Assembly: GCA_965248925.1 (NCBI GenBank)
Contig: CBDFLE010000006.1
Coordinates: 3,808,001-3,872,000 of the forward strand
Reading direction: 5' to 3'
Origin: Candidatus Multivoradales bacterium
GTDB taxonomy: Bacteria; Acidobacteriota; Thermoanaerobaculia; Multivoradales; J023
DNA length: 64,000 bases
This document shows, piece after piece, positions 3,321 to 15,673 of this stretch (position 1 is the stretch's first letter; each line of letters starts with the position of its first letter). Both the position numbers and the translations under genes were made by a program. A model generated the notes under the pieces. The model saw nothing but the letters and a program-made list of their open reading frames with translations, made no database searches and was not told the origin of the DNA.

Positions 3321-4817
3321 CAGCCCGTGGCAGAAGTCCGTTTCTACAAAATGTGGCCTAAATTGAGGCCAGCCGGCGCAGGTGGTCTGATCGAAGATCT
3401 TAGTGGCCAATATCCGCTCTCGTGCGGCAGAAGCCAGCTCAGCAAGCTATATACGGCGCGAAAGCCCTGTTCGAGAGCCGAAAGAAAGCCCTGAAGGGCC
3501 CGTGGAGTGCCGGCTCCATACATTTGACGAAGCAGCAGCCCAAGATTGAATCCCGCGATGTGAATCAGCAACCTTTTGCGGATGTTGTCGTGACCTCGAA
3601 GGTGGGTCCTTCTCATACCGCCAGTCTCGTAGCAATGGGCAAAGGTGCGTTCTACTTTCTCTCCTCGACGCCGCGACAGCTCGCGGCCTCGACGACCCTT
3701 GATCCGTCGACGGTTGGCATACACCGCTTGCTTCTCCGCCTCTTTGCCGCACCAGTTGCGTCGGCCTCGATCCGGTTCCGAAATATAGGTTCGAATCTTC
3801 CCTTGACGCTGTGCCTTCATGACCGCGTTACTGTGATAGCCCTTGTCAGCCACCAGCTCTGAACGGACTTTCTCGCTCAAGTGATCGCCAGCCCCCGAAT
3901 CCTCAACGACATCTTCCAGCACCGCAGCGACTTCATCCAACGTCCGCTCTAGGCTCGACGTGTCCCCTCGGTCTGCAGGTTGCACCGTCACCGCCACAAC
4001 CGCACCCGTCTCCATATCCACCGCATGCTCGGCTTTGTGCGCCAGATGCGTCCGCCCATCCTTCATTCGCGTGACTTTGGCGTCGGGATCGTGGGGGTTC
4101 TTCCAGTCGCCGTTCGACGTCTTTTTGTTCTTCCTTTGGCGGTCAAAACGCGCCAGATCCGCTCGCGTCGGGGTCTCCACACCCGAAGCCTCGGCCAGGC
4201 GCGTGAGAAACTCTTCGTTGCTCTCGCCCGAGTCTCGACGCACGATGCTGCGCATCGCCGCGTTCGCCTCGAGGGTCGTCGCATCGATGCCCAGCGTCTT
4301 TCCCCGGAGCAAGCCAGCCTTCGCCAGTACTTGCAAAGCCCAAGCAAACACCGCCTCATGGGTCTCGAGATCGATCAGGCGACGGGTCCGAGAGAGCGTC
4401 GAATGGTCCGGGGTCTGGTCCGAGAGTTCGAAGCCCAGAAAGTCGCGCAGAGTCATCGAATCCGCAAGCCGCCATGCGATACCTCGCTCAGAGTCGATAC
4501 CCTCGAAGAAGCCGATCAACAGCAACCGAAAATACACCGCGGGCGCCAGCGAAGGCCGTCCCATCCTCGTAGCGTAAAACCTCGCGCACTGCTCCTCGAT
4601 AAAGCGATCGAAACCGTGCTTGTCGAGAATCTTGGACAGACGCTCGTAGAAAGGATGTCCTGGGGACTTGGCCAGCGCCTGGGTTTCCACCCAGAGCTGC
4701 CGCTGTCTTCGTTTGCTTCGCCTGCCCATCGCCATGGTCGCTACCTCCCTCGGGTGGAAAGATTCTACCAGGGAAGATCGCCAAGACGGCCGTAATCGGG
4801 ACTTTCACCACGGGCTG
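3321..4817 (-). mobile_element. Insertion sequence (IS1182/IS5-like DDE), apparently intact
   Basis: Terminal inverted repeats CAGCCCGTGGcagAAGTCC / GGACTTtcaCCACGGGCTG; CTAG target duplication at 3317-3320 and 4818-4821; single transposase. Confidence 0.9.
3344..4735 (-). CDS. DDE transposase (DUF772 N-terminus + DDE_Tnp_1)
   Basis: GRPSLAP, PDHSTLSRTRR, GIDATTLEANA, ADKGY, VERTFAH motifs. Confidence 0.93.
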   Translation of the reverse strand: MAMGRRSKRRQRQLWVETQALAKSPGHPFYERLSKILDKHGFDRFIEEQCARFYATRMGRPSLAPAVYFRLLLIGFFEGIDSERGIAWRLADSMTLRDFLGFELSDQTPDHSTLSRTRRLIDLETHEAVFAWALQVLAKAGLLRGKTLGIDATTLEANAAMRSIVRRDSGESNEEFLTRLAEASGVETPTRADLARFDRQRKNKKTSNGDWKNPHDPDAKVTRMKDGRTHLAHKAEHAVDMETGAVVAVTVQPADRGDTSSLERTLDEVAAVLEDVVEDSGAGDHLSEKVRSELVADKGYHSNAVMKAQRQGKIRTYISEPDRGRRNWCGKEAEKQAVYANRRRIKGRRGRELSRRRGEKVERTFAHCYETGGMRRTHLRGHDNIRKRLLIHIAGFNLGLLLRQMYGAGTPRALQGFLSALEQGFRAVYSLLSWLLPHESGYWPLRSSIRPPAPAGLNLGHIL

Positions 4818-7794: not shown

Positions 7795-8205
7795 TCAGAA
7801 CCTCAAGGAGCTAGGGGTATCGCCTCCGCGCCTCGCGGCAAGCCAGATCCTGACGGTCCCATTGCCGTAGCTAGCGGCCACCAAATAACTTGAGATCAAT
7901 GCTGCGACAGTGCGATCTTCGAGGGCCAGAATCTCGGCGAATCTGAGTTGCCAACGACCGTTCCAAATCGCCCAGATAGCCAGGGTCAAGACCCTTTCCC
8001 TGGGCGGCGCTTGGTCGATCTCTGAGAGATGCTCGTAGGCAGTATTCTTGGGTCCATTCGCCCCCCACAGCTCGGCGCGGCCCATTCGATCGAGCAGCAG
8101 GCGGCAGACGGCCAGGCGCAGCTTTGGATCAACCAAATCGAAACCCCCGAAGATTCGGTAGCGGACAGGGGCACATCGAGCGCACGGACCGTGCCGGGTG
8201 CTCAA
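7795..8205 (-). CDS. Hypothetical protein (true start probably ~8150)
   Basis: Protein-like segment LAVCRLLL..LW...GP...AIWAIWNG; last gene of a minus-strand run. Confidence 0.55.
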   Translation of the reverse strand: MSTRHGPCARCAPVRYRIFGGFDLVDPKLRLAVCRLLLDRMGRAELWGANGPKNTAYEHLSEIDQAPPRERVLTLAIWAIWNGRWQLRFAEILALEDRTVAALISSYLVAASYGNGTVRIWLAARRGGDTPSSLRF

Positions 8206-8590
8206 TGGGTCGAATTACAACGTCGAGCGCCTGCCAGTGCGCGTCAACCGTCTTGGAGAGCCCGGCTAGTGCCCTTAGCTCAAGCCATGACGGTTGCTCT
8301 GCGCCGCCAATCCACAGCACCACCGCGGCGGGGTCGTAGGGCTGCCCGGCGAGCAGCAGCTCGGTCACATCGAGCGCCGCCAAGCCAGCGGATGCTAGGC
8401 AATGAGCCACCGGAATGTGCTGGGCGTCGAGCAGCAACACGCCGCCGGGCTCGGATCTACTGAGCAGTAAGTTCAGAACCAACGCCGCCTCAGCGACCGA
8501 CGCTAGCCCCTGGCAGGTCCACATCTCCCCCAGCTCGACCTGGACGACCTTTGCCTTCGGGTGCTGCCCGATCAAGGCTTGAGTGCTCAC
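8129..8590 (-). CDS. Degenerate RadC/JAB-like protein
   Basis: E-x-x-x-VLLLD, AAVVLW, QPS, ALDVVI have RadC spacing, but HNHPSG is absent; GTG start overlaps the upstream stop (GTGA). Confidence 0.5.
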   Translation of the reverse strand: MSTQALIGQHPKAKVVQVELGEMWTCQGLASVAEAALVLNLLLSRSEPGGVLLLDAQHIPVAHCLASAGLAALDVTELLLAGQPYDPAAVVLWIGGAEQPSWLELRALAGLSKTVDAHWQALDVVIRPIEHPARSVRSMCPCPLPNLRGFRFG

Positions 8591-9120
8591 CTCTGCCCAC
8601 CCGGACCCCGTGAGATCTGGACCAGCTCGTTGCCGGCTTGTCGTAAGAACCCCAGAGCTGGCGCGAACTGCCTGCAAGGCGGCGAGATGGCAATATCTCT
8701 CTGCGCCAGGGTCGAGTGGCGCAGGGCGGCCAGAGCACCAATTCGGACCTCGCCGGCAGCCACCACCGCGCTATCGATCTGTTGCTCTACAGCGCCGCGC
8801 CAGCTAGCTAGCTGGTGGTCGGCGGCGGCCGCGTCCTCTGCGGTCCACAGTTCACCGGGCGGTGCCTGGCCGAGGAGCAGAAGGGTATCAAGAGTGGCTC
8901 GAAGATCGGCCACCAACGAGCCATAGCCGCCCAGTGGGAAGACCTCAACCGGCGCTCTATCTGCCGGGTCGTCGGGTCGCGCTCCGGGGGGCCTCGGGGC
9001 CAGCGGCACCAACACCCAGGGCAGCACCATCGCACGCTCGGCGGCGACGATCAAAGCTGCTGCTTCGAGGCAGCCTCGGCGCAACTGCTGCGGCGCGACT
9101 GGATAGAGCAGTGTGCTCAC
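8587..9120 (-). CDS. Hypothetical protein
   Basis: 177-aa ORF translationally coupled to the downstream gene. Confidence 0.55.
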   Translation of the reverse strand: MSTLLYPVAPQQLRRGCLEAAALIVAAERAMVLPWVLVPLAPRPPGARPDDPADRAPVEVFPLGGYGSLVADLRATLDTLLLLGQAPPGELWTAEDAAAADHQLASWRGAVEQQIDSAVVAAGEVRIGALAALRHSTLAQRDIAISPPCRQFAPALGFLRQAGNELVQISRGPGGQR

Positions 9121-9193
9121 GAGTTTGGCTCCCTATTGGCGGCGCTGCAGGTTCGCTGGCTGGCGACTAACTCGGCATCTACAGCGGGCCGGA

Positions 9194-9607
9194 TCACTGC
9201 ACCGTCCTCAGTCGCTGGCCGCTGGATCTCACCAGCAGGGCGATGCGGGCTCGCTGATCGGCGCCGCGCCGCTCCAGCCAGCTCTCGATCAGCTCCTCCT
9301 CCGAGATCTCGGCCGCGTCACTCAGCAGGCCGATCGTGGTGCCGACCTGCTCCGTTGCCAGCTCCGTGGCACCGAGCATTGCTTCCAAGATCGTTGGCGG
9401 TTGAAGCTCGGCGCTCGCCAACTCCCGCTTGGCAAAGCCGCCACGATGGGTCGGCACGGTGGGCGGATCGGGGAGCATAGCCAGCAGGTCAGCCAGCTTG
9501 TCCTCCAAGCGCCGCAACTCGGCGCCGGTCTCTAGCATCACCGCCCGCGCCTGGGATTCGATTTGCTCGGGCGAAGCAACTTTCGCAACTGGTTGTGGGT
9601 CGCTCAT
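9194..9607 (-). CDS. Small helical hypothetical protein divergent from the HTH-TPR gene
   Basis: MSDPQPVAKV...; its 5' part is conserved in the second repeat copy at 13605-13712. Confidence 0.7.
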   Translation of the reverse strand: MSDPQPVAKVASPEQIESQARAVMLETGAELRRLEDKLADLLAMLPDPPTVPTHRGGFAKRELASAELQPPTILEAMLGATELATEQVGTTIGLLSDAAEISEEELIESWLERRGADQRARIALLVRSSGQRLRTVQ

Positions 9608-11278
9608 GGGCTGCACTGTAGGCACAGACCGGGCCTGGCAGGGCAACGAATCTCAGCGCGACAATCTATCAACCCTCGGCCAATTCCGATTCCAATGACC
9701 TGAGAACCGGGATCCATTAGCCTCGCCGCCGGCTACCTCGGGCAGCGAGTGCTCAGGCGCAATACCGAGGGTATAGGGTAAGCTCGCTGGAGCTATAGAC
9801 TATGGATAGTTAAGAGGGACCAGGGATGAACAGTGAGACTGCGCGAGCAGACCAGGCGCTTGCGTCAGCAGTTGCGCCGATACTTTGACCTGCACCGTGG
9901 CCGGCAGAGTTCCGTCGACCGCGAAAGCGGCCACTCTCCAGGTTGGAATCGGACGATATTCGGGCGCGGGCTCCGCCGGCTCACCGGTTGCCAGATCATC
10001 TCCAGTGCTCAGGGCATGGGCCTCGATCTCGGTGAGCTGGTGGCCGAGACCACCGCGCCTGGCTCGGCCAAGTTGCTGCGCAGGGTCCGCGAAGGCACCC
10101 ACGGCCAGCGGGAATACACCCTCGCCAGGCGGTCCACGGTCAAGGTCGAGACCAAGACCGCAGAGACGGAGTCCGCCCCGGCCAAAGCCGAGCCTGTCGT
10201 GGTCGAAGCCAAGGCCGAGACCCAGGCCGAGGCTGAGGTCAAGAAAGTCCTGCTCAAGACGCCACCGACCGCCATCCTCAACCTCGAATCAGCCGCTAGG
10301 CAGGTGGCCTGCCGACGCCTCGAACAAAGCGAACTCTCGCCGCCGCCCGCGCCCACCGCCGAGGAAGCCTTCAGCTGTTTGCTCGATGCGCCGCTGAATC
10401 ACCGCCGGCAGGTGCTCCGTCAAGAACCCCGCTGGCGTAGCCTGGCTGGGGTCAAGCATGCTGCTTTGGCGATCGACAAGCTTCGGCTTTGCGCCCCCAA
10501 GGAAGCCAGGGCGCTGGCGCAGATCCTGGCGATCGAGATCGCCGCCAAGATCAAAGGCGCAGATTGCGCCGAGGCGTTCTGCCGGGCAGCTGGGGTGCTG
10601 GGTTCGAGCCACAGAATCGGCGCCTCCATGGAAGGCGCCGCCTTCTGCCTAGAGACAGCCCTAGTGATCGCCTGCTGGGCACCGCCAGGGGTGCGGGCGG
10701 ATCTACTGCAAAGGGCGAGCTTCGTTCTGTCGAATCACGGCGCCATCGAGGCCGCTCTGGCAGTCTCCGGCAAGGCAATGGCCATCTATGCTGAGCAGCG
10801 GGACAGTGCTGGCATGGGCAAGGTCTTCGTCGATCAAGCAACCTTCTTGGCCTATTCAGGTCAGTACGAAGAGGCGCGTGGATCGTGGCTGAATGCTCTG
10901 GCTCTGCTACCCGATACCGAGAAACATCACCGCGCAGCGGTCTATCAAGGATTGGCCCACCTCGATGAGCAAGCTGGCCGGCTCGATACCGCCATTGAGC
11001 ACTTGCGGCTAGCTCAGGAATTCATCCCTCAGCGCGCGACCTACCTTCGAGGCAAGGTGTCTTGGGCGGCGGGTGAGATAGCAAGAAAGCAAGGGCGATT
11101 CGGTGCTGCGGAGAGCCAGCTTCGGCAGGCGGTCGCAGAGCTGGGAATGATCAACCCGTTTGATCTCGGCTTGGTGACTCTCGATCTTGCTGAGTTGCTC
11201 TTGGAGACCGGCCAGGCCGCCGAGGCAGTGGAGCTGGCCAAGGACACGGAAGCCCTGCTCAAGCTGTTCAAGAGCAAC
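9500..11278 (+). repeat. Direct repeat, copy 1 (~1.78 kb; pairs with 13605-15377)
   Basis: Colinear, near-identical sequence from GTCCTCCA(A/G)GCGCCGCAACTCGG to AAGAGCAAC. Confidence 0.95.
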
Positions 11279-11305
11279 CCGAGCAGAGTAAAAACGACAG
11301 AATGA
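9826..11305 (+). pseudogene. HTH-TPR regulator copy 1, 5' frameshift and 3' truncation
   Basis: Extra G near 9841 versus copy 2 (ACTGCGCGAG vs ACTCGCGAG) uncouples ATG 9826; homology ends at FKSN and the ~45 C-terminal aa are lost. Confidence 0.75.
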
Positions 11306-11453
11306 ACTGCTGGTAAGGTGCGTGGCACCCCATTTGGTGTATGTCGGGTGCGTTTGCTGGACAAGTAGAGGGCCGGGCGAAGCGTCGAATTCGAACGACC
11401 CCACCCGGCCCATCTAGAGCGCGTTGCTCTCTCAGTCTGTAATTACGTGTGCC

Positions 11454-12084
11454 TCAGCATGGACACGCGATCTGAACCATTTGGGTGATCTCCCCTGAAG
11501 ACATCGCGCTCGGCGTGCTTGGGAATTCTCCGAGTCCGCTAGAGTGAAGCGCTTCGTGGATCAGAGGTATGGCGCGCGAATAAGGGAGCGGGAAGAACAG
11601 TCCTGAGCAAAGGTAAACCGTAAACGATCCCCGATAGGTGAAAGCCAGGGCTGTGCTGTCGCAGGCGACGTTCACGCCGTCACCTGGCTTGTACCTGGTA
11701 AGTTCGATGGTCGTAATCCCGTCACCGCTAATCCCGTTGCTTGGCCAAAGGTTGGCGCAGGATGTTTGCAGAAGCTTGAAGAAGGCGTTGGCTCGGGCTT
11801 GGTCGAGTTTTATCTGCTGGTAGTTGGTGAAACCGTTCTCGTTAAAGGGGGCTGTCATCGCCACCACCGCCACTACCACCACCGCCACTGCCGCCACCAC
11901 CGCTACACGAGTACCCCCAATCGCCGAGCGGGCAGGTCAAGGTGCCGGTGGCTGAGGAACTATCCCATTCCCACGTACAGTCGTCCAAGTCGACGTTAAG
12001 TGGCACCCACCCACAGTCACCATGCGCCGAGGTGGACATCAGGGCGACCAGAACAGAGCACAACAAGGCGGCTCGCGCGCTCAT
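11454..12084 (-). pseudogene. Secreted HExxH metallopeptidase (M35/aspzincin-like) with a Gly-Ser linker, frameshifted
   Basis: Signal peptide, Cys domain and (SGGGG)3 in one frame; VYLCSGLFF...LIHEALH in another; removing one C from the C5 run near 11847-11851 joins them. Confidence 0.7.
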
Positions 12085-13151
12085 CTTGCCACCACATTCC
12101 GGGGGTGCTCGACCAGGACCGAATGCGCGGTTCCGGCCGGGCCTGTGAGATAGAGCCAAAGACGGAAATTCCTGTCGGTGTAGTCTAGGCGGTCTGCGGT
12201 AAACGCCTGTCTATCATCGTTGTTCGAGACCATCAAGGGCAGGCTAATCGATCGCCAGATCTCCCCATGGTCGCCCAGCGGTAGCAGAGCATAGGGATAA
12301 TTGTCGAGTGGAATCACGGCCGATCCCTGTGGATACAGCTCGACATCCCATTCACCGATAAGGGGTTGGCCAAATAAGCTGCCGGGAGGGTTTGAGCCCC
12401 AGAGGCGGGCGCCTGCTCGCGGCTCCGGCGGGGCCTGATGGCTCCAAGTGCCGAGGACCTTTCCCCCGATGGTGCTGAGTCGTTTCTCTGTCCAGTGAAA
12501 AGCCTCGACGATATCGGTGGGATCGGATGGGTAGATGTATTCAAGGATCAGTTCGAGACCGATATGAATCTTGAGTGGGCGGCCTTCCACATCCCACTCA
12601 ACGCCTGCCAGCGGCCCGTTCACATCTTTTGCCCAGAGGAGCCCATGACGGTTGCGGCTCTGGTGGCGCTCGCCACCGAGTGAATCCTTGATGATCACCA
12701 CTCTTTCTTTGGAGCGCTGGGGGAACCGTACCCCGACTCTCTTGGTGACGGTGAGCTGTTGGCCGAGCGACTCAGCCTGAGTTTCAAAGATCGCTTGCTC
12801 CGGGAGCACTGTTCCGGGCTCGAACGCGTCAGTAGGAGGTAGGACGCTTCGGTACAGCCTCCAGTAGTAGGCGGATTGGGTGGTCGTCTCCCATTTGCCA
12901 TCGGCCGCTTTCGTGTCGAAAGCCGAGGCGGCGGCGCTGTGACCGCGCTGCCAGGCTTGGAGCCAGTTGAGGATCTCAGCTTGTCGTTCGTCGGGTAGGC
13001 CAGTGGTGGTCAAGAGGCGTTGGCCGTCGTCGCCAGTGTGGGAGGTCAGCCACGTCGGATCAGGGTCTGACGACAGGGCGGGGGCTGTTGGCCACAGCAG
13101 AGCGGCGACCAGCAGGACAGGGGCAATACGCATGCAAGACTCCTTTCTCAT
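12081..13151 (-). CDS. Secreted hypothetical protein
   Basis: 356 aa; signal peptide (IAPVLLVAALLWPTAPALS); ATGA overlap with the peptidase gene. Confidence 0.7.
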   Translation of the reverse strand: MRKESCMRIAPVLLVAALLWPTAPALSSDPDPTWLTSHTGDDGQRLLTTTGLPDERQAEILNWLQAWQRGHSAAASAFDTKAADGKWETTTQSAYYWRLYRSVLPPTDAFEPGTVLPEQAIFETQAESLGQQLTVTKRVGVRFPQRSKERVVIIKDSLGGERHQSRNRHGLLWAKDVNGPLAGVEWDVEGRPLKIHIGLELILEYIYPSDPTDIVEAFHWTEKRLSTIGGKVLGTWSHQAPPEPRAGARLWGSNPPGSLFGQPLIGEWDVELYPQGSAVIPLDNYPYALLPLGDHGEIWRSISLPLMVSNNDDRQAFTADRLDYTDRNFRLWLYLTGPAGTAHSVLVEHPRNVVAR

Positions 13152-13202
13152 CCTCTCTCTAGTTGTTCTGAATTCAACACATTCACTCCAATCTACAAGA
13201 AG

Positions 13203-13462
13203 GTAAGCGTCCCAGCAACCCCACCTTCCCCTCGCGCTTCTGAGCAGCCAAGATCAGCCGTAGGAGGTGACCTATGGTTGAAAGCACGAATCGGTCGCGC
13301 TCTCGCCGGAGCAGGGCGTCTTGGCAAAGAACGATTGAACCGTGGAAGAGCAGCGGCCTGTCCCAGGTGAAATTCTGCGAGCAGAACGACCTGGCGTTGG
13401 CGATTTGCGGGTGGTGGTACAGACCTCTGAAACGTGACGCTGTGGCCAAGACCGCACCCTAG
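13203..13462 (+). mobile_element. IS66-family remnant (left end + tnpA)
   Basis: GTAAGCGTCC end typical of IS66; RBS AGGAGG; ORF 13274-13462 W..SGLSQVKFC...W resembles IS66 TnpA; no tnpB/tnpC. Confidence 0.75.
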
Positions 13463-13604
13463 CCGTCTGACGCGAACGAGCTTCTGCCTCTGGTACCAGC
13501 GGCTGGAGAGAGGGCGCTTCCGCCTGCCTGAGACAAATGAACCGAGCGTCGAGATGGAGGCTGCGGAGTCGGGAGAGCCGGGTGCCATACGCTTCTGCCG
13601 AGTC

Positions 13605-13712
13605 GTCCTCCAGGCGCCGCAACTCGGCGCCGGTCTCCAGCATCATCGCCCGCGCCTGGGATTCGATTTGCTCTGGCGAAGCAACTTTCGGCTCTGGTTG
13701 TGGGTCGCTCAT
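13605..13712 (-). pseudogene. Truncated copy of the 9194-9607 gene
   Basis: MSDPQPEPKVASPEQIESQARAMMLETGAELRRLED, then unrelated sequence toward the IS66 remnant. Confidence 0.75.
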
Positions 13713-15377
13713 GGGCTGCACTGTAGGCACGGTCCGGGACTGGCAGGGCAGCGAATCTCAGCGCGACCATCTATCACTCCTCGGCCAATTCCGATTCCAA
13801 TGACCTGAGAACCGGGATCTATCAACCTCGCCGCCAGCCGCCTCGGGCAGCGAGTGCCCAGGAGCAATGCCGAGGGTATGGGATAAGCTCACTGGAGCTA
13901 TAGACTATGAATAGTTCAAGAGGGGCCAGGGATGAACAGTGAGACTCGCGAGCAGACCAGGCGCTTGCGTCAGCAGTTGCGCCGATACTTTGACCTGCAC
14001 CGTGGCCGGCAGAGTTCCGTCGACCGCGAGAGCGGCCACTCTCCAGGTTGGAATCGGACAATATTCAGGCGCGGGACGCGCAGACTCACCGGCTACCAGA
14101 TCATCTCCAGTGCTCAGGGCATGGGCCTAGATCTCGGTCAGCTGGTAGCCGAGACCACCGCGCCTGGCCCGGCCGAGTTGCTGCGCAGGGTCCGCGAGGG
14201 CACCCACGGCCAGCGGGAATACACCCTGACCAGGCGGTCCACGGTCAAGGCCAAGACCGCAGAGACGGAGTCCGCCCAGGCCAAAGCCGACCCCGTCGTG
14301 GTCGAAGCCAAGGCCGAGACCCAGGCCGAGGCTGAGGTCAAGAAAGTCCTGCTCAAGACTCCACCGACTGCCATCCTCAACCTCGAATCCGCCGCTAGGC
14401 AGGTGTCCTGCCGACGCCTCGAGCAAAGCGAACCCTCGCCGCCGCCCGCGCCCACCGCCGAGGAAGCCCTCAGCTGTTTGCTCGATGCGCCGCTCAATCA
14501 CCGCCGGCAGGTGCTCCGTCAAGAACCGCGCTGGCGTAGCCTGGCGGGAGTTAGGCATGCTGCTCTGGCGATCGACAAGCTACGGCTTCGCGCCCCCAAG
14601 GAAGCCAGGGTGCTGGCGCAGATCCTGGCGGTCGAGATCGCCGCCAAGATCAAAGGCTCAGACTGTGCCGAGGCGTTCTGCCGGGCAGCTGGGGTGCTGG
14701 GTTCGAGCCACAGAATCGGCGCCTCGATGGAAGGCGCCGCCTTCTGCCTGGAGACCGCCCTGGTGATCGCCTGCTGGGCACCCCCAGGGGTGCGAGCGGA
14801 TCTACTGCAGAGGGCGAGCTTCGTTCTGTCGGGTCACGGCGCCATCGAAGCCGCCCTGGCAGTCTCCACCAAGGCCATGGCCATTTACGCCGAGCAGCGG
14901 GACAATGCTGGCATGGGCAAGGTCTTCGTGGACCAAGCAACTTTCTTGAACTACACCGGCCAGCCGGAGAAAGCGCGGCGCTCATCGCTATACGCCCTGG
15001 CGCTGCTACCCGACACTGAGCAGCACCAGCGTGCAGCGATCTATCAGGGTTTGGCCCATCTTGATGAACAGGCTGAGCGGCTCGACAGTGCAGCGGAGCA
15101 TTTGCAGCTAGCCCAGGCGTTCATTCCTCGGCGGGCAACGTATCTGCGAGGAATGGTGTGTTGGTCGGCGGGTGAGATCGCCAGAAAGCAAGGGCAGCTC
15201 AGTCTGGCAGAGCGCCATCTGCGGCAGGCGGTGGAGAAGCTAGCCAAGATCAACCCCTTCGACCTAGCGCTGGCAACTCTTGATCTTGCTGAGTTGCTCT
15301 TGGAGACCGGCCAGGCCGCCGAGGCGGTGGAGCTGGCCAAGGATACGGAAGCCCTGCTCAAGCTGTTTAAGAGCAAC
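13605..15377 (+). repeat. Direct repeat, copy 2 (pairs with 9500-11278)
   Basis: See copy 1. Confidence 0.95.
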
Positions 15378-15515
15378 GAGATCGCTCACGCTGCGGTAAG
15401 GCAGCTCGCCAGCGTGGCCCGGCGCGGAGAGTTCGATCTGGCGGTTGTCAAGGTGGCCAGGGAGGTGATCAAGGGCGAGCGGCATCGCGGTATCCGCCCG
15501 CCCAATTGGCGCTAG
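13932..15515 (+). CDS. HTH-TPR protein (Xre-like HTH, linker, TPR domain), intact copy
   Basis: N-terminal QSSVDRESGHSPGWNRTIFRRG HTH-like segment; Ala/Leu-rich TPR repeats from about residue 240; RBS-like AGAGGGG. Confidence 0.75.
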   Translation: MNSETREQTRRLRQQLRRYFDLHRGRQSSVDRESGHSPGWNRTIFRRGTRRLTGYQIISSAQGMGLDLGQLVAETTAPGPAELLRRVREGTHGQREYTLTRRSTVKAKTAETESAQAKADPVVVEAKAETQAEAEVKKVLLKTPPTAILNLESAARQVSCRRLEQSEPSPPPAPTAEEALSCLLDAPLNHRRQVLRQEPRWRSLAGVRHAALAIDKLRLRAPKEARVLAQILAVEIAAKIKGSDCAEAFCRAAGVLGSSHRIGASMEGAAFCLETALVIACWAPPGVRADLLQRASFVLSGHGAIEAALAVSTKAMAIYAEQRDNAGMGKVFVDQATFLNYTGQPEKARRSSLYALALLPDTEQHQRAAIYQGLAHLDEQAERLDSAAEHLQLAQAFIPRRATYLRGMVCWSAGEIARKQGQLSLAERHLRQAVEKLAKINPFDLALATLDLAELLLETGQAAEAVELAKDTEALLKLFKSNEIAHAAVRQLASVARRGEFDLAVVKVAREVIKGERHRGIRPPNWR

Positions 15516-15619
15516 GCTGGGCTACCGTTTGGTTCGATCATTGGACCGAACCCGGCCTGGTCGCCTTGGTGCCCGATGATCGGGCCAACTCGCCCGCGCC
15601 TTCTTTTCTGCTTGCTCAT
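15512..15619 (-). CDS. Unannotated 35-aa peptide MSKQKRRRGRVGPIIGHQGDQAGFGPMIEPNGSPA
   Basis: GGGGAG RBS 7 nt before the ATG; internal repeat GPIIGHQG/GPMIEPNG; stop overlaps the TPR gene stop in CTAG. Confidence 0.6.
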   Translation of the reverse strand: MSKQKRRRGRVGPIIGHQGDQAGFGPMIEPNGSPA

Positions 15620-15643
15620 TTGAAACTCCCCGACACGCCGCCG

Positions 15644-15673
15644 CCTTGGCCGAGCTGAATTGCTCGGGCAAGG
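15644..15673. promoter_or_regulatory. Inverted repeat upstream of the peptide gene (operator or hairpin)
   Basis: CCTTG-G-CCGAGC-tgaatt-GCTCGG-G-CAAGG. Confidence 0.4.

Follow-up and report, generated by a model that had tools for sequence, protein, structure and literature searches.

A conserved tail-to-tail pair of a helix-turn-helix/tetratricopeptide-repeat regulator gene and a small peptide gene in an acidobacterium, with a layout like that of RRNPP systems

The described systems closest to the locus reported here are those of the RRNPP(A) family (PlcR-PapR, NprR-NprX and AimR-AimP), in which a receptor made of an XRE-type helix-turn-helix (HTH) and a tetratricopeptide repeat (TPR) domain is encoded beside a small propeptide gene, and which the available portions of PMC10075063 and PMC9765709 describe as a family of Firmicutes. 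In the Rgg-SHP and ComR-ComS systems, short leaderless peptides are encoded beside a receptor with HTH and TPR-like parts. Some shp genes are convergent with rgg. We have analyzed a stretch of 64,000 nucleotides from a Candidatus Multivoradales genome (contig CBDFLE010000006.1, positions 3,808,001 to 3,872,000; hereafter the window, and the genome it comes from the own genome), which holds a gene for a 527-aa HTH-TPR protein at 13932..15515 (+) and, convergent with it, an open reading frame (ORF) for a 35-aa peptide at 15512..15619 (-). The organism belongs to the Acidobacteriota, a diderm phylum. In our judgment it is probable, at roughly 0.6, that this locus is one copy of a large and diversified family of two-gene modules, each consisting of an HTH-TPR regulator and its own peptide gene placed tail-to-tail, and that the two act as a cognate regulatory pair.

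The likeness to RRNPP(A) systems is one of several parts. The locus has a predicted TPR superhelix, an N-terminal XRE-type HTH and an adjacent small propeptide gene; the active part of the peptide is expected at its C-terminus, preceded in relatives from other genomes by a pro-region and a predicted Sec-type leader; a single genome contains many such pairs, paralogous and divergent from one another, on DNA that looks mobile; and Rap, NprR and AimR can be superposed on the TPR part at Z scores of 16-21, although the Rap-Phr receptors, unlike the one described here, lack an HTH. There are also differences. RRNPP(A) systems belong to Bacillota and the present pair to Acidobacteriota, no RRNPP receptor was seen among the best 60 of 224 sequence matches of the receptor in the PDB and Pfam recognizes only generic TPR families in it, the peptides share a conserved scaffold that ends in P-x-G, the two genes are convergent and abutting, and the window peptide is leaderless. 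The HTH domains of Rgg and ComR resemble the N-terminal domain of the window receptor (Rgg2 at Z 6.1, ComR at Z 6.5 and 5.4), but the window peptide, basic and polar and built on a G/P scaffold, is unlike the hydrophobic SHP and ComS peptides. Tandemly duplicated Phr propeptides of Rap-Phr systems, as presented in the available part of PMC11343458, are similar in holding several mature units per propeptide (3-7 cores in relatives of the present peptide, two in the window), and differ in receptor class and phylum.

Both genes of the window had been singled out in an earlier note on this DNA, and its description of them agrees with our observations. The intact HTH-TPR gene has the coordinates given in the ORF list, and its stop overlaps that of the convergent 35-aa ORF in the sequence CTAG at 15512-15515. 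The GGGGAG that the note took for a well-spaced ribosome-binding site is present as a Shine-Dalgarno-like (SD-like) element at 15626..15631 (-), 6 nt before the peptide ATG; the N-terminus is basic, with K or R at 6 of the first 10 residues; and by our reading the peptide is leaderless, the note having stated that it lacks a hydrophobic signal. The two similar cores that it recognized correspond to residues 11-19 (15563..15589, -) and residues 24-32 (15524..15550, -). The second of these fits the core of the family, aromatic-G-x-x-Φ-x-P-x-G (where Φ is hydrophobic), and has 3 more residues after it; the first is degenerate, with H where the family has P. Inside the ORF, the two cores also form a 16-nt inverted repeat at the nucleotide level (15529-15544 / 15573-15588, 81% complementary).

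The window peptide, used as a tblastn query against the own genome, returned itself as the sole match. Because such short peptides are untraceable by similarity, we traced them by position and motif, beside the receptor genes. A tblastn search of the own genome (8 Mb) with the window receptor gave 37 matches, and a profile of alignment A2, which consists of the window receptor and 23 of its paralogs and relatives (24 members), identified 36 family ORFs there at >=90 bits. Beside 26 of these 36 there is a convergent ORF with its stop between -7 and +45 nt from the receptor stop and with [ILVMFYT]-x-P-x-G plus 0-3 residues at its end; the same holds for 25 of the 3758 other ORFs in this genome that are 300 aa or longer. 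Two further family loci have a motif ORF at -17 and -20 nt, and the family ORFs without a partner are mostly fragments or truncated copies. With a stricter test, which was applied to receptors of at least 200 bits and demanded the core G-x-x-Φ-x-P-x-G in the last 16 residues or its presence twice, the figures were 18 of 24 receptors and 36 of 3758 other ORFs. A separate, earlier pass over all 5908 long frames of the genome had found the tail beside 29, most of them judged by eye to be of the receptor family, and 20 of the 29 were later confirmed as receptor ORFs at >=90 bits.

At E<=1e-60, 23 of 24 genomes from the same taxonomic family, representing 10 of 10 genera, contained a receptor of this family. 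Among 301 genomes sampled from the phylum, with 5 candidates scored per genome, 4 matched at E<=1e-30 (the own genome included), all of the same order. A HMMER search of a representative protein library yielded 1361 receptor clusters at E<=1e-30, and a word-based protein search yielded 6 relatives. When a three-sequence alignment of relatives served as the query, 3 loci were recovered, from records named Acidobacteriota bacterium; a related-locus search with the window receptor alone returned nothing from genome contigs or metagenome contigs, and one with P0002 returned nothing. Our counts for relatives refer to 28 unique complete receptor loci, duplicates and loci with <450 nt downstream or <700 nt upstream having been excluded. 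The strict core was present in the convergent downstream position at 13 of the 28, and in five control placements at 0, 0, 1, 0 and 1 of the 28; divided by receptor score, it was present at 10 of 18 loci with >=380 bits and at 3 of 10 loci with 200-380 bits. The enrichment of small motif ORFs downstream of receptor homologs, which the earlier note had suggested looking for, is seen both in the own genome and in its relatives. Its view of the small ORF as a gene paired with the TPR regulator is supported, one-to-one, across paralogs and genera, the ORF having the look of a translated one, and we regard the pair as confirmed, at the level of sequence, to be real and conserved.

The peptide ORFs also bear a coding signature. 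In 24 unique peptide ORFs, the information content of the codons for the conserved G, Φ, P and G is 1.3-2.0 bits for positions 1-2, as compared with 0.1-0.7 bits for position 3. Because codon positions 1-2 are conserved and position 3 is free, selection appears to act on amino acids and not on a DNA element, and by this signature the peptide ORF is under amino-acid-level selection. An SD-like motif at -16 to -3 of the ATG or GTG precedes 22 of the 24 ORFs, as compared with 15% of 20000 random ATG triplets. These observations bear directly on the suggestion that the stretch after the receptor stop functions without translation, as a terminator or binding site in DNA or RNA, and that its ORF is accidental in a G+C-rich genome. 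Small antisense ORFs are indeed common at 62% G+C, and a weak hairpin resembling a terminator of the receptor transcript lies at 15581-15596 (+), inside the peptide ORF. Yet such an element would not be expected to have three-base periodicity with free third positions, SD-like starts, or, in relatives, in-frame signal peptides and repeated cores; moreover, terminator-like hairpins were no more numerous than in shuffled sequences. We consider an untranslated element exceedingly improbable.

The 24 unique peptides of the own genome are 17-41 aa long from script-chosen starts, and those that were read have no hydrophobic leader. Two-core peptides, like that of the window, occur also in 4 paralogs. 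The relatives in other genomes are more varied. Among the 28 loci there are 18 family-like ORFs, of which 8 begin with a hydrophobic, signal-peptide-like segment by a crude rule of our own; three more such ORFs were recognized by eye. The signal-peptide-like ORFs continue with an acidic pro-region and then the C-terminal core, and this predicted series of leader, pro-region and core is the anatomy of secreted pheromone propeptides. Other ORFs are tandem arrays of 3-7 cores with short spacers, as at loci L110, L112, L049 and L108, where 4-7 cores are regularly spaced and where, at L049, a signal-peptide-like leader is present as well; in all, the number of cores per ORF in relatives ranges from one to seven.

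Because of the predicted Sec signal peptide, the peptide would have to leave the cytoplasm in those relatives, for which a cell-to-cell or an envelope-to-cytoplasm signal would be the natural reading. The window peptide, leaderless and with a basic N-terminus, would require another export route or else would act within the cell. The latter alternative can be stated more broadly, namely that the peptide works purely inside the cell, as a small protein that joins the regulator in the role of anti-regulator or co-factor, and that the leaderless forms, including that of the window, are never exported. The short length of the own-genome peptides, the lack of a hydrophobic leader in those that were read and the strongly basic N-terminus of the window peptide would all be accounted for in this way; the signal-peptide-like leaders and acidic pro-regions of homologous modules in other genera would not. 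Leaderless pheromones with dedicated exporters exist, moreover, in the Rgg-SHP and ComR-ComS systems, which also counts against an intracellular partner, and we think this explanation rather doubtful.

The tandem arrays bring up another alternative, in which the peptide is not a ligand but a regulated product, similar to the precursor of a bacteriocin or of a ribosomally synthesized and post-translationally modified peptide (RiPP), and the adjacent HTH-TPR regulator senses something else. Tandem cores with short spacers do resemble multi-core RiPP precursors, and the location of 22 of 36 modules within 12 kb of RHS-repeat genes can be cited in the same sense. However, no known RiPP enzyme family was recurrent beside the pair among the few neighbors scanned, and no modifying enzyme recurs: the neighbors are Pterin_4a-like, RadC-like and RHS proteins and proteins without a family match. 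The TPR regulator is the sole invariable partner of the peptide gene. A regulated product seems to us quite unlikely on these grounds.

We examined the predicted structure of the receptor for its similarity to known peptide receptors. The AlphaFold2 model of the 527-aa protein, with a predicted local distance difference test score (pLDDT) of 87.1 and a predicted template modeling score of 0.86, contains a helical N-terminal domain, a disordered linker at residues 100-140 and paired helices from residue 146 to residue 516. We assign about residues 1-92 to an XRE-type HTH and about residues 146-516 to a TPR superhelix. In Pfam, the window receptor matched TPR_MalT and TPR_12, both weakly, and its own sequence gave no HTH match; of the 24 members of A2, TPR_12 was matched by 20, TPR_MalT by 20, HTH_31 by 3, and HTH_3 and HTH_26 by 1 each. 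The N-terminal domain modeled alone (pLDDT 79.1) gave structure matches that were nearly all XRE-family HTH domains, the top one being 3f6w (Z 9.5, 79 residues aligned), and the HTH domains of ComR, Rgg2, Rgg144 and PrgX were among them at Z 5.4-6.5. With the full model, matches to RRNPP structures were observed for the peptide-bound Rap of phage phi105 (Z 21.0), NprR-NprX (Z 19.1), RapI (Z 17.7) and AimR (Z 16.9 and 16.4). There was no match of the receptor in PHROGs or NCBIfam, and its nearest Atlas clusters contain HTH_3/HTH_31 plus TPR_12 proteins, most commonly from Acidobacteriota. The predicted architecture is that of the RRNPP HTH-TPR receptors, a likeness that may or may not reflect common descent.

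The best structural match of the whole model was APPBP2 with a RxxGP degron (8jal_A; Z 25.5, 314 residues aligned, rmsd 4.2). In this protein, too, a TPR superhelix holds a short peptide, and the family peptides described here end in P-x-G; but APPBP2 is a eukaryotic ubiquitin-ligase adaptor without an HTH, and the likeness may be one of repeat architecture only. A short conserved tail, similar to G-[IA]-R-P-P and with a nearly invariant R522, is present at the C-terminus of the receptors (about 15480-15512 in the window, A2 columns 690-715) and is modeled by AlphaFold2 with low confidence. As a speculation, this proline-rich tail, lying beside a putative P-x-G-binding groove, could be a pseudo-ligand.

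The earlier note had proposed an RRNPP-analogous receptor/peptide pair in a diderm lineage. What stands of this proposal is a real and conserved pair with an RRNPP-like layout in Acidobacteriota. The comparisons partly support the view that the pair, which is RRNPP-like in its layout, would on present evidence also work like an RRNPP system, short of membership in that family. In full-text searches of the literature we found no paper that joins RRNPP with Acidobacteria or Acidobacteriota, although supplements of surveys may hold hits outside Bacillota, and none that joins peptide-based quorum sensing with diderms. Papers found under "RRNPP-like" dealt with Gram-positive bacteria only, a search that combined Rhs, Acidobacteria, tetratricopeptide and small peptide returned nothing relevant, and no published description of the receptor/peptide pair was found.

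As a cognate pair, the two genes would operate as follows. The peptide would be translated and then trimmed to at least one unit of 8-9 residues with the pattern aromatic-G-x-x-Φ-x-P-x-G, in which G, Φ, P and G would provide the common scaffold and the x positions the specificity. The unit would bind to the groove of its own TPR domain, and binding would switch the control that the HTH exerts over neighboring genes, and probably over the peptide gene as well. Ten pairs of receptors that are 64-82% identical to each other are informative about specificity: in no pair were the 9-residue cores identical, 3-7 of the 9 positions being common to the two members, while G2, P7 and G9 were fixed throughout, and at position 5 nine pairs had I and the tenth had V or L. 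Such divergence fits the expectation for private ligands. When residues 176-527 of the receptor (the TPR domain, with alignment) were co-folded with the 35-aa peptide, the score was 0.02 against a mark of 0.32, a value from which we draw no verdict.

Several observations weigh against the cognate-pair reading. None of the 6 sequencing runs found to contain this stretch is an RNA run. More generally, it is to be noted that pairing weighs less than binding would, since co-inheritance produces pairing and co-divergence even if the peptide is a mere regulated product; by the same token, the divergence of cores among close receptors would follow equally well from co-inheritance of fast-evolving neighbors. 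The structural evidence is not discriminating either, because TPR proteins of eukaryotes that are unrelated to RRNPP receptors score as high or higher with the model (APPBP2 as given above, and an APC subunit at Z 22.6), and we take the matches to RRNPP receptors as failing to set these apart from other TPR proteins. The top ranks in Foldseek were occupied by generic TPR proteins, with MalT domain III at rank 21 and the Rap of pLS20 at rank 44, and among the best 60 of 224 sequence matches of a profile search against the PDB there were generic TPR proteins and no RRNPP receptor; because both searches rank generic TPR proteins first, the likeness is one of architecture and not evidence of descent. 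Among the relatives, 15 of the 28 loci lack the strict core, several of them showing variant cores by eye. The loose tail Φ-x-P-x-G was also tried as a marker in relatives and was rejected as unspecific (18 of 28 loci, as compared with 5-10 of 28 in controls), so that the strict core was used instead. Finally, the window copy itself is imperfect: its peptide has no export signal, core 1 is without the conserved P, core 2 is trailed by 3 residues, and the cassette has been rearranged, with truncation of the divergent gene.

In the own genome, the modules are often located near genes for RHS-repeat proteins. The Pfam family PF05593 gave 133 matches, which we merged by hand to 39 RHS ORFs; 22 of the 36 receptor ORFs lie within 12 kb of an RHS match, and for 27 of the 39 RHS ORFs a receptor is no more than 16 kb away. 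Some of these neighbors, encoded about 100-400 nt downstream on the strand of the receptor, are giants that reach 5114 aa and combine RHS repeats with Big domains and DUF6531; others are proteins of 1576-1671 aa. Giant RHS genes form arrays on contigs C4 (about 157-284 kb) and C5 (about 5-60 kb), with frames of 1143-5114 aa about 20 kb apart, the last being shortened to 322 aa where the contig ends. In front of each RHS gene of the arrays there is a receptor/peptide module with a divergent Pterin_4a-like gene; the units on C4 also hold a gene for a 155-aa protein without a family match. The window copy is an exception in this respect, its closest RHS match being 119 kb away. In five relatives, counted by eye, about 3 of 28 receptor matches shared a contig with an RHS match and were within about 15 kb of it, among the 150 of 321 RHS matches listed. 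Because this proportion is so low, we regard the RHS link as a feature of the expansion in the own genome and not of the family.

The cognate-pair reading can be extended to these loci: dozens of receptors per genome, each with its own G-x-x-Φ-x-P-x-G peptide, could provide private channels that gate RHS polymorphic toxin loci by recognition of kin or density. We offer this extension tentatively and think it doubtful as it stands. In a subgroup of the family, comprising the locus at C6:780497-782211 of the own genome (G000) and its paralogs, there is a conserved divergent pair of genes for a 330-aa protein without a family match and a RadC-like JAB protein, which suggests a mobile-element context.

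The rearrangement of the window cassette can be seen from a segmental duplication in which 9493-11285 matches 13598-15385 at 90-95% identity. The first copy (A) includes a divergent operon of three genes at 8129..9646 (-), for proteins of 150, 177 and 182 aa without family matches, and a receptor paralog of 490 aa (P0001) at 9833..11305 (+), 89% identical to the window receptor over 91% of the query; homology is lost about 45 codons before the end of this paralog, and no peptide ORF follows it. The second copy (B) has the intact receptor and the peptide, and its divergent operon is reduced to about 49 codons: a 5' remnant of the divergent gene is found at 13605..13751 (-), where homology to the intact copy at 9194..9646 stops. 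The intergenic region between this remnant and the receptor gene (13714..13931) is 90-95% identical to its counterpart in copy A. From these alignments, the duplication appears to have split one ancestral cassette, leaving the operon and a 3'-truncated receptor in A, and the receptor, the peptide and an operon stump in B.

This history supports, to an extent, the view that the family is functional but that the window copy is a decaying orphan, controlling nothing and with a peptide that is perhaps a misfit. Copy A has lost the 3' end and the peptide, copy B the divergent operon; an insertion sequence (IS) transposase gene is nearby, at 3344..4735, and the closest RHS match is far removed; and the peptide has one degenerate core and a second with a 3-residue tail. 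However, the receptor frame is intact and of full length, and the peptide gene retains its ATG, its SD sequence and one canonical core. We consider decay of the window copy unlikely.

The same rearrangement bears on the statement of the earlier note that the pair controls the divergent operon. The operon does recur next to the closest paralogs: that of copy A has a syntenic counterpart beside a receptor paralog on contig C3 and partial ones near C6:622 kb and C6:2.65 Mb. Beside the intact copy, however, it has been cut to the stump described above, and the recurrent neighbor in most paralogs of the own genome is an RHS-repeat gene and not the three-gene operon. Control of the operon by the receptor/peptide pair, for which synteny provides the support, is uncertain.

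The earlier note had also pointed to an inverted repeat upstream of the peptide gene. This repeat is present at 15644..15673, 25-54 nt upstream of the peptide ATG, with arms of 12 nt at 15644-15655 and 15662-15673 that are 92% complementary and separated by a 6-nt loop, and its 11 pairs exceed the maximum of 8 obtained in 30 shuffles. It is not a property of the family, only a weaker version being found, in the closest paralog. A family-wide operator of this kind was ruled out, since none above chance was observed upstream of the other 22 unique peptide genes; as a copy-specific element, the repeat may be a candidate operator. A promoter scan gave one weak promoter-like site about 430 nt upstream of the peptide ATG.

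The island at 3-16 kb of the window, which lies between thrS and coaBC, contains a DDE transposase gene (DUF772 and DDE_Tnp_1 in Pfam; 3344..4735, -) and genes without family matches; the neighboring genes gave nothing in PHROGs or NCBIfam. The 2.3 kb between the two copies (11286-13597) have a lower G+C content, 57-61%. Encoded there are a 148-aa protein at 11454-11900 (-), with a HExxH motif and a weak match to Aspzincin_M35 (E 0.0049, below the cut-off), and a 356-aa protein at 12081-13151 (-), with a signal-peptide-like start and no family match; neither gene is recurrent beside other receptors. A 62-aa frame at 13274-13462 (+) has no Pfam match and is, presumably, judging by its look, a fragment of an IS accessory protein.

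The reading of encoded peptide signals by a cytoplasmic HTH-TPR receptor is treated as a hallmark of Bacillota in the available portions of PMC10075063 and PMC9765709. If the pair described here does work in this manner, that mode of peptide communication would be extended to a diderm phylum, and one would have to explain how a peptide passes twice through two membranes. Gene regulation in a soil lineage that is hard to work with could then be probed with a short, synthesizable ligand. In addition, the RHS link in the own genome points to a tie, open to testing, between the sensing of peptides and antagonism among bacteria.

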